Notes: a model not told the origin generated them from the sequence alone. DNA of 32,000 nucleotides from Verrucomicrobiota bacterium (GCA_021294815.2 CP095464.1:480001-512000); one strand, 5' to 3'. Counted from the first letter of the stretch, positions 6,251 to 12,583 are shown. Program-made: numbers and translations.

Positions 6251-6285
6251 CCGCGGAGATTCCCGCGGCGTTTTGTTTTGTTTTT
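6251..6285 (+). terminator. stem-loop CCGCGG-agattc-CCGCGG followed by CGTTTTGTTTTGTTTTT. It is an intrinsic terminator candidate and the first element of the cassette 5' module.
   Basis: Perfect 6-bp stem plus a T-rich tail, read directly. It lies downstream of the M42 gene. Confidence 0.6.
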
Positions 6286-6293
6286 ATAATTTA

Positions 6294-6321
6294 TTGACTA
6301 ATTGAATCTATTTTTTACAAT
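6294..6321 (+). promoter_or_regulatory. sigma70-type promoter TTGACT-16 bp-TACAAT, with ATG exactly 10 nt after the -10 hexamer
   Basis: Read directly. The geometry is the same as at 8144, 9471, 10764 and 11679. Confidence 0.65.
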
Positions 6322-6331
6322 TCTTCCGTCT

Positions 6332-8050
6332 ATGAATTGTAAAATCGTTAAATCATTATCGCTGGCTGGGGCGATGCTGGCAACGTCGTTCGCGTTCGGT
6401 GAAATTAGTCCTGAAACAGAGATGTGGATTCAGGAGCTCATTGAAAAAGCAAAACAAAGTTCCAAAGGGGCGGCATTTCTCACAAAGATAATGTCCCTTA
6501 TGGAGCGGTATGCAGCGCTTCCACAGCGTTTGGCTAATCCAGATACTTTGACTTTAATGGATGCCGGGTTTTTACCGAAATTTTTTAGTTCTCTTGGGCA
6601 CCCACTGGTACTAGAACAAGTTCCAGAAATACTTCATGTACTAAAGGGGCGATACCCTGTAGCGGATGCTAGCGCATCATCCACTAGGCGGGATATCAAT
6701 GAAAGAATTAGAAGACTCATAGAAAGTGTCAAAGATCCAGAGTTTGCAAAGGAAGAAATTGTACAAGTTCTCAATATCGCAGAGGCCTATATTGACAGGC
6801 GGCCGCTTGATGCGGACAATCCTTATACAAAGTTTTTCTTTAGGGACTTTCCTAATAAGGGATTGGTACGAAAATTGATTGCTATTGCTAAAAAACGTCT
6901 CGCGCCAACGGATTCTGTAGACCCGGACGGTCCGCGCTCTGATACATCGTCGACGGGAAAAGCTGATGATCTTGTGCAATGGGTTATGGATAAGACGAAA
7001 GATCCGAAGATGACAGCAGCGGATGTTACATCGATGATCCACGATCTAGAGGAGTGTATCGAGGCATTGGAATCTGGCCAGCCAATGAGTGCTGATAATT
7101 TTTGGGCTGATCGTACGGAGCTCCCCAGTTTGGAGCGGCTTCAAGGGCTGCTTCGATTTTTAAGAGAACATTTATCTCAATTAGAGTCCACGGACACAAG
7201 ATCTGATGATACTACACCGGAAGAGGACCGTAATGATAGCCCGGCTCTTAGGAAAAACGGTAATATTTGGATGCGCGGGAAGATCATCGAAATTCAGGGT
7301 ACCGGCGTGCATCGCACAACGCTTCAGGAAACGATCCGCAATGTGGGTGAGTACCTTGCATGGCGGTTGAATCCCGATGCGTCTGATGCAACACTGCCTC
7401 ATAATTCCTTTGTCGAAGAGCTTCGAGGGCGCAAACCGGACATAAAGTGGGTTCAGAAATTGATCGCTGTTGCGAAAGAGCGCCTTCTTAAAATAGATCC
7501 CGCTGCGGTCATTGACGATCCTAGCGCTGGGATTCCAACGGAAAATCCTGTTGTAGATAAGCCGACGATTCCAGAAGCTGCAGTTACGCCAAATGTTCGC
7601 AGTAATCAAAGAGTATCGCCAGAAGCTTTGAAGGCGGCGAAGCTAAAAAATAGAAAGCTCCAGGTGCTGGTACGTGAAAGCGCTCGGTGTTGGAAGGCTA
7701 TGCATGAGGCCTATGTGAAGGCCGCGCAAGACAAGTTGGCAGATTATATGGCGGCGCATCCGGACAGTTCGCTGCATTCTTTGCAGCCACAGCTCGAACA
7801 ATGGTATTTGGAATCCATTCACAACCCCAGCGAGGCCGAAAAAGCCTTGGCGACAATGGAGAAGAAATTGGCTGAGCAGCAGATTATTATTGACTTCATT
7901 GAGACTCGCATGAAAGAATATAGGTATTTCATGAATGTGTGGCTTGCGGAATATAATCGACGCAGGGAAGAGATCAATCAGGGCGACACACCGGATGGCA
8001 CAGTCGAAGCATTTGGACAAGACAATCCTATTGCGAGTTACACGGAGTAA
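6332..8050 (+). CDS. secreted protein, FGE-leader cassette family member A (572 aa)
   Basis: Signal peptide MNCKIVKSLSLAGAMLATSFAFG|E. An internal duplication is visible (VRKLIAIAKKRLAPTDS vs VQKLIAVAKERLLKIDP). No family was recognised. Confidence 0.75.
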   Translation: MNCKIVKSLSLAGAMLATSFAFGEISPETEMWIQELIEKAKQSSKGAAFLTKIMSLMERYAALPQRLANPDTLTLMDAGFLPKFFSSLGHPLVLEQVPEILHVLKGRYPVADASASSTRRDINERIRRLIESVKDPEFAKEEIVQVLNIAEAYIDRRPLDADNPYTKFFFRDFPNKGLVRKLIAIAKKRLAPTDSVDPDGPRSDTSSTGKADDLVQWVMDKTKDPKMTAADVTSMIHDLEECIEALESGQPMSADNFWADRTELPSLERLQGLLRFLREHLSQLESTDTRSDDTTPEEDRNDSPALRKNGNIWMRGKIIEIQGTGVHRTTLQETIRNVGEYLAWRLNPDASDATLPHNSFVEELRGRKPDIKWVQKLIAVAKERLLKIDPAAVIDDPSAGIPTENPVVDKPTIPEAAVTPNVRSNQRVSPEALKAAKLKNRKLQVLVRESARCWKAMHEAYVKAAQDKLADYMAAHPDSSLHSLQPQLEQWYLESIHNPSEAEKALATMEKKLAEQQIIIDFIETRMKEYRYFMNVWLAEYNRRREEINQGDTPDGTVEAFGQDNPIASYTE

Positions 8051-8100
8051 GTGTGAAGTGAAGTAGAAATTTTCTAAAAAAATACATTGACGATAGAAGA

Positions 8101-8135
8101 CGCTGCGGGAAACCTCTTGTGGCGTTTTGTGTTTT
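8101..8135 (+). terminator. wobble-rich stem-loop followed by TTTTGTGTTTT (cassette module hairpin)
   Basis: CGCTGCGGG-aaacct-CTTGTGGCG can pair using several G-T wobbles. A T-run follows. Confidence 0.4.
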
Positions 8136-8143
8136 AAGATTTA

Positions 8144-8171
8144 TTGACAGTTTGGGCGGTATCCTTAAAAT
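8144..8171 (+). promoter_or_regulatory. promoter TTGACA-16 bp-TAAAAT, ATG 10 nt downstream
   Basis: Read directly. It is preceded by the conserved TTTTAAGATTTA. Confidence 0.7.
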
Positions 8172-8181
8172 CGACTCGGAT

Positions 8182-10736: not shown

Positions 10737-10763
10737 GGGAATAGTAGATTGTTTTAAGGTTTA

Positions 10764-10791
10764 TTGACATCATTGCTGATGTTTTTAAAAT
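10764..10791 (+). promoter_or_regulatory. promoter TTGACA-16 bp-TAAAAT, ATG 10 nt downstream
   Basis: Read directly. It is preceded by TTTTAAGGTTTA. Confidence 0.7.
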
Positions 10792-10801
10792 GTTTTCATA
10801 T

Positions 10802-11581
10802 ATGAAGACGATATTGATGGGCATTGGCTTTGTTATGGGGATTTTCCTGGCATCATCGTGTGTTTTTGGCGAGACCTCCCAGAAGCGCCTCAATGAATAC
10901 AGCGGAGAGGAACTCAAGCAAGCGCTTAGCGAGGTGATGAACCGATTGACCAGCGCAGGATATCAACCGATACCTGGGACCTTGAAGTATAAGTTTGATG
11001 CTCAGCACACAACGGTGGGACCAGAAGGTGTACCGTTGACTAAGCAGCTCGAGGATTTGCAAAAGGATTTAGACCAATGGGGGCAAAAAATTGATGGAGC
11101 AGTAAAAGATTTGAATGCAAAAGCCAATAAGAGCGAAAAAGTCAAGGACGTCGAGAAACTAAGCGAAAAGAAACGGGCGTTCATTCGTTGTGTCAAATTT
11201 AAGGCAGGGTTGGAGGGAGCAACATTAAGCGAAGAGGATCGTAAGGTGCCGACTATAAAAAAATGCCTTGAGATTCTTGGTGATGTGGAAACAGAGAACT
11301 TGCTCCCGTTTTATCAGTTGAGTAACACGCTCTTCTTGTTTTTCGACAAGACGCAAGGTATAACGATTCAGTTCCCCGACAGTACCGAAATAGAAATTGC
11401 CCCTAATGGAAAAACCAAGACCATGAAATCTCCGACTAGTGAAAAGGACGATTGGTTTGACTATGATGAGTTCGACGCGAAGTATGGCGGGAAGAACTAT
11501 TTCGCAGCAAACAAATCTGATGATAATGATGAAACCGATTCCATTACTGGCGGCGAAACCGGTGATCAATCTGATGATTGA
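10802..11581 (+). CDS. secreted protein, FGE-leader cassette family member D (259 aa)
   Basis: Signal peptide MKTILMGIGFVMGIFLASSCVFG|E, then YSGEELKQALSEVMNRL. Acidic C-terminal tail. Confidence 0.75.
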   Translation: MKTILMGIGFVMGIFLASSCVFGETSQKRLNEYSGEELKQALSEVMNRLTSAGYQPIPGTLKYKFDAQHTTVGPEGVPLTKQLEDLQKDLDQWGQKIDGAVKDLNAKANKSEKVKDVEKLSEKKRAFIRCVKFKAGLEGATLSEEDRKVPTIKKCLEILGDVETENLLPFYQLSNTLFLFFDKTQGITIQFPDSTEIEIAPNGKTKTMKSPTSEKDDWFDYDEFDAKYGGKNYFAANKSDDNDETDSITGGETGDQSDD

Positions 11582-11637
11582 TACGCGGAAGGTGTTGGCG
11601 TAGAAGTTATTTTTCTTAATTGGAGAATCTGCAGGGT

Positions 11638-11671
11638 GCCATGGGAGTTGATCCCGTGGCGCTTGTGTTTT
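11638..11671 (+). terminator. stem-loop GCCATGGG-agttgat-CCCGTGGC followed by GCTTGTGTTTT
   Basis: 8-bp stem (one G-T pair), a 7-nt loop and a T-rich tail. Confidence 0.55.
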
Positions 11672-11678
11672 AAGTTTA

Positions 11679-11706
11679 TTGACATGGGAGGCGGTATTTT
11701 TAGAAT
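11679..11706 (+). promoter_or_regulatory. promoter TTGACA-16 bp-TAGAAT, ATG 10 nt downstream
   Basis: Read directly. It is preceded by TTTTAAGTTTA. Confidence 0.7.
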
Positions 11707-11716
11707 GCCCCTGGAT

Positions 11717-12583
11717 ATGAAGACGAAATTGTTGGGCATTTTATCGGTGTCGGGGGGCATGTTGATTTCATCGCACGCTTTCGGAGAGGACATTATGGGC
11801 TACTCGAAGGAGAAACTTCAGGAGAGCGTCCAAGAAACCGCGTATAAATTCTGGGAACATTGTCCCAAAGGAGATCACGATAAAGGAAAAATCAGCGGCT
11901 TGGAGTTTGTAAAACCGGAGAAGGCGACACCAGAAGTAGAGCCGAAGCCAAAAAAGAAGCCGGATCCAGGGGCAGCGAATAAGTGGAAAGGAAAGTCTTG
12001 GAATCAGCTTGAAGATGAAGAGAGGCGAGAATTTGCAAAATATATAAAGGAAAATAACCTACCGATACCGGACGAGGTAAGCCAGATGGATCGGATCAAA
12101 TATAAACTCTTCAAACTTAACAAGAAGCCCAAGGGAAACCCGCCGCCGCCGCCGAAAAAAGAGCCGACTAATCCTAAAAATATGACTGCTCAGGAGGCAC
12201 TGCAACAAGCGCCACAATTACAGTCACATGAATGGGAGAATACAACGCTAGAGGATATACAGGGACGGTTTGAAGATCTTAAGAGCGCTTTGGAAAAATT
12301 GGATGCCGAAAAATACAAGGATGCAATAGATGCGTTAGAACAGCTGGGAGATTTAACAGAAGAGATAGATGACGACAAAGGCGTTGGAGATTACGAAGCG
12401 ACGAAAGAAAAGCTTGATCCACTGGTAAAAACGTTGACAGAACAACAGAGTAAGCTTGAAGAGATAAAGGAACAAAAAGAAAATTTAGACGAGATATTTG
12501 GTGTCCCTGGTACACAAGGGGATCTCGCGTACATGCAAAAGCAGGTAAACGATGGTATAGAGGACAGCACTTCTAGTTGGTAG
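11717..12583 (+). CDS. secreted protein, FGE-leader cassette family member E (288 aa)
   Basis: Signal peptide MKTKLLGILSVSGGMLISSHAFG|E, then YSKEKLQESVQETAYKF. Lys/Pro-rich middle (PPPPPKKEP), an acidic coiled-coil-like C-terminal part and a terminal EDSTSSW. Confidence 0.75.
   Translation: MKTKLLGILSVSGGMLISSHAFGEDIMGYSKEKLQESVQETAYKFWEHCPKGDHDKGKISGLEFVKPEKATPEVEPKPKKKPDPGAANKWKGKSWNQLEDEERREFAKYIKENNLPIPDEVSQMDRIKYKLFKLNKKPKGNPPPPPKKEPTNPKNMTAQEALQQAPQLQSHEWENTTLEDIQGRFEDLKSALEKLDAEKYKDAIDALEQLGDLTEEIDDDKGVGDYEATKEKLDPLVKTLTEQQSKLEEIKEQKENLDEIFGVPGTQGDLAYMQKQVNDGIEDSTSSW

Follow-up and report, generated by a model that had tools for sequence, protein, structure and literature searches.

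The DNA considered here is a stretch of 32,000 nucleotides (nt) from a Verrucomicrobiota bacterium (CP095464.1:480001-512000); these 32 kb are called the window, and all positions are counted along them. The sequence belongs to a metagenome-assembled genome (MAG) of reduced size (878,461 bp, or ~878 kb). The system that concerns us is a tandem array of five genes, A to E, each of which is preceded by a copy of the same module and encodes a protein with a predicted export signal. The five genes lie on the same strand, and their ATGs, given with the protein lengths in Table 1, had been read correctly in the first-pass annotation of this DNA. The open reading frames (ORFs) match exactly the genes annotated in the NCBI record (UPA28117-UPA28121, LW808_002305-002325). 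The order of elements described for the module is also borne out: a hairpin and T-tract, an A/T-rich block, TTGAC(A/T), 16 nt, TAnAAT, 10 nt, the ATG and a leader peptide.

Table 1. Features of the array and of its surroundings, in positions of the window
Feature	Position	Strand	Description
Module A	6251-6331	+	hairpin 6251-6268, T-tract, A/T-rich block, -35 TTGACT 6294-6299
Module A, -10 box	6316-6321	+	TACAAT; 16-nt spacer before it, 10 nt after it
Gene A	6332-8050	+	572 aa; 23-aa leader; all-helical orphan mature part
Module B	8097-8181	+	hairpin 8097-8128, TTTAAGATTTATTGACA 8133-8149, -10 TAAAAT 8166-8171, 10 nt
Gene B	8182-9363	+	393 aa; leader, Pro/Ala/Lys/Glu-rich mature part, acidic C-terminus
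Module C	9404-9508	+	large-loop hairpin ~9404-9436, TTTAAGATTTATTGACA 9460-9476, -10 TAGAAT 9493-9498, 10 nt
Gene C	9509-10621	+	370 aa; leader, N-terminal helix common to D and E, orphan rest, Ser/Asp-rich tail
Module D	10702-10801	+	hairpin 10702-10728, -35 TTGACA 10764-10769, -10 TAAAAT 10786-10791, 10 nt
Gene D	10802-11581	+	259 aa; leader, homology to C up to about residue 65, acidic tail
Module E	11634-11716	+	hairpin 11634-11664, -35 TTGACA 11679-11684, -10 TAGAAT 11701-11706, 10 nt
Gene E	11717-12583	+	288 aa; leader, helix motif YSKEKLQESV, Pro-rich and coiled-coil-like remainder
Lineage-specific island	6221-14920	+	8.7 kb; holds A-E and two orphan genes, F121 and G422
M42 peptidase gene	5150-6220	+	left flank of the island
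F121	12714-13079	+	island orphan gene; no signal peptide; not a module-bearing member of the array
G422	13365-14633	+	paralog of F121; no signal peptide; not a module-bearing member of the array
GspE-type ATPase gene	14921-16075	-	right flank of the island

The promoter pattern TTTATTGAC(A/T)-N16-TAnAAT-N10-ATG has exactly five matches in the window, all of them at A-E, against 0.00 in shuffled sequences. The 17-nt block TTTAAGATTTATTGACA, with up to 3 mismatches allowed, recovers the same five sites only (0.14 expected). When the stretch from 5 to 19 kb is scored for sigma-70 promoters, the top four places go to B, C, D and E with 11/12; the promoter of A reaches 10/12. The 16-nt spacer, the 10 nt to the ATG and the lack of any Shine-Dalgarno (SD)-like motif are those of a putative sigma-70 promoter with a leaderless start, and judging from these signals A-E are probably expressed strongly and constitutively and translated from leaderless mRNAs. 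Each promoter is preceded by a hairpin and a T-run, with free energies (dG) of -12.1, -20.9, -13.7, -21.1 and -24.1 kcal/mol from A to E; the z score is below -4 in three of the five, those of A and C being weaker (-1.3 and -1.9). At all five sites the hairpin is followed by a run of the TTTTG(T)TTTT type, as in intrinsic terminators, and its 3' arm and tail are alike between the copies of the module. The modules contain no RNA element known to Rfam.

Part of this arrangement is common to the rest of the genome. An SD-like motif is absent from 23 of the 24 genes of the window, about half of the 24 show a -10-like hexamer whose end lies 5-12 nt ahead of the start codon, and the malate dehydrogenase gene mdh (30811-31749, minus strand) carries TAAAAT, 10 nt and ATG in an arrangement identical to that of the array. 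The succession of a -10 box, 10 nt and an ATG, like the absence of an SD motif, is therefore a genome-wide leaderless habit and not a feature of a cassette, and the spacing has to be struck from the cassette features for which it had been taken. Other starts of the SD-free or leaderless type include those of two genes on the minus strand, H294 (16385-17269) and I270 (17385-18197), and those at 12714 and 13365. In relatives at ~70% identity SD-like motifs stand before 30-43% of the genes, and the close relative described below is SD-poor like the window; this suggests that SD-free or leaderless starts are a recent shift specific to the lineage. What sets the array apart is its hairpin arm and T-tract, the A/T-rich block together with the -35 hexamer, and the leader. 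The genes of other secreted proteins in the window (H294/I270, an HtrA-like protein of 350 aa and J1058) differ from the array in both promoters and leaders, so the module is not a general attribute of such genes here.

The protein alignment upholds a leader of 23 aa with invariant M1, G13, L16, F22 and G23; residue 24 is E, E, K, E and E in A to E. By inspection, K/N-K within positions 2-7 and the hydrophobic core of positions 8-19 correspond to a signal for Sec and signal peptidase I. Before the putative cleavage site, A to E have A, T, A, V and A at position -3 and an unvarying G at position -1, with E/K following. The length of the leader and its FG end are the same in all six known members, including the additional member X introduced below. 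A lipobox for signal peptidase II is lacking in A, B, E and X, whose leaders contain no Cys, and the leader Cys of C (TSPC) and of D (ASSC) has a poor lipobox context, 3 residues before the conserved FG end. Judged by these features, the products of A-E are predicted to be exported through Sec.

The first-pass annotation regarded the 5' module as a homologous, repeated unit, and this view stands. Local DNA alignments between the units extend over about -60 to +24 only, with 68-79% identity concentrated in the functional motifs; C-D is the exception, its alignment running from -117 to +78. Between copies of the module the 16-nt spacer and the 10-nt leader are close to random identity, and the 3' untranslated region (3'UTR) with its hairpin is at random level (46%) in all pairs but C-D (62%). 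The DNA coding for the leader peptide is 49-67% identical, compared with 46% at random, and reaches 62-67% in A-B, A-E, C-D, C-E and D-E, while beyond +70 the units are at random identity. Since identity is random outside the functional motifs, the copies of the module are therefore old and held by constraint, and have not spread recently. A recent shuffling of one adaptor does not agree with this, C-D excepted.

The same annotation took the mature parts to be unrelated payloads. At the sequence level this is correct for all pairs but C-D when Smith-Waterman scores are compared with shuffles (C-D z 7.5). The C-D alignment, which includes the leader, has a BLASTP E value of 8e-11 and remains recognisable to about residue 65, ~40 residues past the leader. 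C and D are in this respect ordinary paralogs that have diverged beyond the leader, and E retains the short helix motif only, with no wider similarity to either. The mature part of A consists in part of three internal repeats of about 90 aa. A relationship of these repeats to the N-terminal helix of C/D/E was considered and set aside (z about 0, not significant).

The mature proteins remain as unrecognisable as they had appeared at first sight. None of the mature parts of A-E scores above threshold in Pfam, NCBIfam gives no match for A-E apart from two far sub-threshold coiled-coil matches for E, and neither PHROGs, for the mature proteins, nor a PDB sequence search, for A or C, returns any. 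A word-indexed search of 5.8 billion protein clusters with C matched only C itself. An exhaustive HMMER search with A over 1.8 billion representatives found A itself, one ortholog (A') and two marginal matches. Residues 51-111 of A align with P0131, a protein of 872 aa with Cys-rich repeats of about 90 aa (E 4e-5, 28% identity), a marginal match that is probably spurious.

The evolution of the array can be followed in a close relative, the MAG GCA_029059345.1 (ENA sample ERZ14208469), in which the proteins of the flanking genes are 93-98% identical and synonymous divergence (dS) is 0.27-0.46. One contig of this relative ends inside a module directly after the M42 gene. A second contig, L127, carries X, A' and B' in this order and ends in the hairpin before C; the contigs with M42 and with X are likely to be adjacent. 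X is a sixth member of the family: it encodes 253 aa with the leader MKNEVAKILSIMGLAMAIASAFG, its start has the form TAAAAT-10 nt-ATG, and its mature part resembles nothing that the window encodes. A' (P0130, L127:943-2139) encodes 398 aa and is 80% identical to A, from which it differs by the lack of A residues ~112-284. These 173 residues span two of the three repeats of A, so that the repeat number varies within a cargo. B', the ortholog of B, is 78% identical. On a third contig the ortholog of F121 abuts gspE and G422 is absent. A three-way alignment shows the junction between M42 and A in the window to be chimeric: its left part is the module found downstream of M42 in the relative and its right part the module found upstream of A', the switch point falling within the common core GGCGTTTTGTTTT...TTTTTATAATTTATTGAC of about 38 nt. 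It follows that X came or went as a unit, through recombination between two modules. Membership of the array thus differs between close relatives, by one additional member whose indel has both ends inside the core.

The cargos themselves change quickly. Nonsynonymous divergence (dN) from the relative is 0.105 for A and 0.124 for B, compared with 0.009-0.030 for the flanking genes, and dN/dS is 0.19 and 0.30, respectively (dS 0.42-0.54), compared with 0.02-0.09. A and B are fast-evolving, at ~10x the rate of the flanking genes, yet clearly coding and constrained.

On balance, the array is probably a rapidly diverging, lineage-specific tandem family of exported proteins, analogous to the Vsp/Vpma and Erp/Elp families discussed below. 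In that case, each gene would be a self-contained transcription unit, insulated from the preceding gene by the upstream intrinsic terminator and driven by a sigma-70 promoter close to the consensus, to which an A/T-rich, UP-like block belongs. The mRNA would start within a few nt of the ATG, leaderless or nearly so, and the 23-aa Sec/signal-peptidase-I leader (...A/T/V-F-G, cut before E/K) would direct export of the product through the inner membrane. The units would derive from one another by tandem duplication. Functional constraint would have held the terminator arm, the T-tract, the UP/-35 block, the -10 box and the leader, and the mature parts, evolving ~10x faster than housekeeping proteins, would have diverged beyond recognition, with C-D as the youngest pair and the exception. 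The ~38-nt core would provide the homology for unequal recombination, by which whole units may be added or removed. Common descent of the units may be argued from the homology of C and D (to ~residue 65 and in the upstream 3'UTR/hairpin), from the shared length and FG end of the leader and from the identity of the leader DNA. Duplication followed by divergence is probably the origin of the cargos, and their products may act at the cell surface or at the interface with a host.

The window offers an internal point of comparison. H294 and I270, encoded by another pair of tandem genes, are likewise orphan exported proteins, 37% identical over their full length, with a promoter (TTGTAA-16/17-TATAAT/TATACT-8 nt-ATG) and a leader (KWLV.CLGS) of their own; their counterparts in the close relative are 90% identical for H294 and only 54% for I270. 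As in the array, the genes are adjacent and co-oriented, and promoter core, distance from the -10 box to the ATG and signal peptide are conserved together. The pair has kept promoter core and leader to a degree similar to that of A-E, and such co-conservation is thus the ordinary pattern of tandem paralogs in this genome. The difference lies in the full-length identity of H294 and I270, whereas the cargos of A-E show no similarity save for C-D.

Several observations weigh against a family that simply duplicated and diverged. No residual similarity is left between the mature parts of A, B, E and X, and their common ancestry is an assumption, as replacement of the cargo or its origin de novo would look alike. 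The similarity of C and D ends abruptly at ~residue 65, which could mark a recombination breakpoint. Between orthologs, conservation of the leader does not clearly exceed that of the mature part (91% versus 80% in A, 78% versus 78% in B). Single-sequence AlphaFold2 models are too poor for a comparison of folds: that of C is unusable (predicted local distance difference test, pLDDT, 33), and that of A is all-helical and of low confidence (pLDDT 55). A Foldseek search of the A model against PDB gave no match (best E 0.9).

These points bear on a second scenario, in which the module is a portable expression-export adaptor, repeatedly copied or recombined onto unrelated or new coding sequences, and the locus a nursery of strongly expressed secreted proteins. 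It would account for six members, X included, with a common module and no detectable similarity of their mature parts. It would likewise fit a unit X whose presence differs at a dS of about 0.3-0.5 and whose indel ends exactly in the module core, the halt of C-D similarity at ~residue 65, and the 9 of 16 spacer positions that B-E and C-D each have in common. Orphan cargos of low complexity or helical character are also what is expected of young genes. Nevertheless, the protein searches, which included the deposited proteins of the same genome, found neither a donor nor a paralog for the cargos A and C. With none for A among 1.8 billion representatives, nor for C in the word-indexed search of 5.8 billion clusters, there is so far no evidence that a pre-existing cargo was captured. 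The random-like identity of the module copies outside their functional motifs makes them old, A and B are under purifying selection, and the window holds no recombinase, integrase or att-like sites. Moreover, the X indel calls for no capture, as unequal crossing-over of tandem paralogs is enough to explain it. The adaptor scenario is therefore considered rather unlikely. Of the cassette system proposed in the first-pass annotation there remain the repeated module, the unrelated cargos and the differences in membership; the capture of existing cargos is not supported. In its boldest form, the module would be a recombination-competent adaptor that, through unequal or short-homology recombination, time and again brings new or freshly formed coding sequences under strong leaderless expression and Sec export, and so serves gene birth and effector diversification in a reduced symbiont. 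This seems less likely again; were it true, the X indel, bounded by the ~38-nt core, would be a direct trace of the adaptor at work.

A different explanation starts from the position of the array. The first-pass annotation had noted that the array ends about 2.3 kb from the gene of a GspE-type secretion ATPase; the distance is right, but the stretch in between holds two orphan genes (12714-13079 and 13365-14633). All five of the more distant relatives compared (L123, L124, L125, L209 and L210; M42 identity 70-74%) have M42 and GspE genes that converge directly and lie 0-195 nt apart. Since the two genes are adjacent in these relatives, which lack the array, positions 6221-14920 are therefore a lineage-specific island. 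Its GC content is 41-50%, compared with 50-56% for the flanking housekeeping genes. A scan of metagenome contigs with the M42 protein returned relatives at <=51% identity only, too distant for synteny to be compared. The island being inserted between M42 and GspE, the proximity of the array to the latter is incidental, a by-product of where the island lies. It is accordingly improbable that A-E are dedicated substrates of the neighbouring ATPase, in a single functional secretion locus, even though all five have the Sec-type leader needed by substrates of type II secretion, gspE lies 2.3 kb downstream and a prepilin-like protein of 1050 aa is encoded at 25989-29141. The gene stands beside M42 in the five relatives without the array, so that array and gene are not inherited together and a functional link between them is not borne out; gspE is also read from the other strand, with two unrelated genes between it and E. 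Its 384-aa product matches the generic T2SSE domain only, the window contains no secretin or GspC-M genes, and related reduced Opitutales are reported to carry competence (DNA-uptake) genes (PMC12306168).

The two orphans of the island, F121 and G422, are paralogs of each other (z 45; 42% identity over about 120 aa), the common part being an N-terminal domain of about 120 aa (MRINLGGGQ...). G422 has in addition 27 consecutive prolines and a C-terminus, DSEDSW, that resembles the DSTSSW of E, and a PPPP-x7-MTAxE(A/L)L stretch is common to G422 and E. Homology of the two was nevertheless rejected: the raw z of 5.2 is not significant after adjustment for composition, the similarity stemming from Pro-rich and coiled-coil stretches of low complexity. 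The poly-proline of G422 could hint at a protein directed towards eukaryotes. In two of the relatives at ~70% identity, genes for ankyrin-repeat proteins lie just upstream of the M42 gene (L209:3227-5841 and L210:3565-4584), which fits an association with eukaryotic cells.

Elsewhere in the window, recA was found, and a tRNA gene (20524-20595, minus strand) is the sole Rfam match. Two orphan ORFs on the minus strand, 20607-23783 (J1058, 1058 aa) and 24413-25612 (399 aa), have no match in Pfam or NCBIfam and sit between the HtrA-like protease gene and the gene of the large prepilin-like protein. The relative L125 has no counterpart of similar size or strand for either, and their region looks like a second lineage-specific insertion. 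The prepilin-like protein itself (plus strand) begins with MMRFHQKDG|FILALTASVLAML..., which resembles a prepilin-type cleavage/methylation signal; it has no Pfam match and a syntenic counterpart of 1139 aa in L125.

The source MAG appears to be a Verrucomicrobiota of Opitutales type, and the bacterium is probably associated with a host or with protists, in the gut. Opitutales with reduced genomes (families UBA9783 and LL51) are known from the guts of farm animals and as endosymbionts of gut protists (PMC12306168, PMC11257099). These bacteria are barely characterised, and published analyses mention many unexplained hypothetical membrane or secreted proteins. The locus would be a testable example of a pocket of rapid innovation in a reduced genome, and its products are obvious candidates for proteins that contact a host or partner cell. 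The module may also be of use for expressing genes in Verrucomicrobiota, as a compact natural part that combines terminator, promoter and leader.

The closest parallel in organisation is found in the vpma and vsp genes of Mycoplasma agalactiae and M. bovis, in which conservation within each family and from one family to the other is confined to the 5'UTR and the signal-peptide region, the remainder having no significant homology (PMC2268961). The array likewise joins constancy of the 5' region and signal peptide to divergence of the mature parts, and like the mycoplasma genes it is a multigene family arranged in tandem in a reduced genome, here that of a probably host-associated bacterium, with internal repeats in some members. 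There is no sequence homology between them. Vsp and Vpma proteins carry an AAKC lipobox and are lipoproteins; only one is expressed at any time, its promoter being a single one that the site-specific recombinase Xer1 moves. In the array, by contrast, every unit has its own promoter and terminator, the cleavage site is of signal-peptidase-I type (AFG|E) and the units are co-oriented with no recombinase nearby; five promoters on one strand take the place of a single expression site with an adjacent recombinase and inversions.

The likeness raises the question of whether the array could be a locus of phase or antigen variation, of the Vsp/Vpma or integron type, in which site-specific recombination switches the expressed cargo. 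Its 5' regions, signal peptides and mature parts match those of vpma and vsp in their pattern of conservation (PMC2268961), and the internal repeats of A change in copy number between relatives. Yet with a near-consensus promoter and a terminator in every unit nothing is silent, all units have one orientation, no ORF of the window contains a recombinase or integrase domain, and there is no lipobox and no long homopolymer in the spacers. The hairpins also lack the GTTRRRY core of attC, and switching of this kind is regarded as very improbable. Integron cassette arrays resemble the present one in being made up of co-oriented, unrelated and mostly orphan ORFs with hairpin-forming repeats between them and with a number of units that varies between strains. 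However, their cassettes are promoterless, bounded by attC and mobilised by an adjacent IntI, none of which applies here: there is no integrase, the hairpins are followed by GTTTTGT and not by GTTRRRY, and every unit has its own promoter. An integron, a phage and a defence island were all discarded as descriptions of the locus, given the lack of an integrase and of any PHROG match and the housekeeping synteny on both sides.

A second family with a comparable design is that of the Erp/Elp genes of Borrelia, which, according to one paper (PMC12242104) and to reference titles in another (PMC10016077), are defined by an 'OspE/F-like leader peptide' and by a box upstream that all of them share. As far as these sources describe them, the genes of B. 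burgdorferi resemble A-E in combining a common promoter box (the 'upstream homology box') and leader with mature proteins that fall into unrelated subfamilies. The array differs in being a single chromosomal tandem array between housekeeping genes that encodes non-lipoproteins, from mRNAs predicted to be leaderless. The Erp/Elp proteins are lipoproteins, encoded on cp32 prophage plasmids in multiple dispersed copies. Recombination among members of that family has reportedly been invoked in the literature, going by titles of Marconi in 1996, Akins in 1999 and Sung in 2000. The array thus introduces no new principle: its architecture is one long known from the surface-protein families of mycoplasma and Borrelia.

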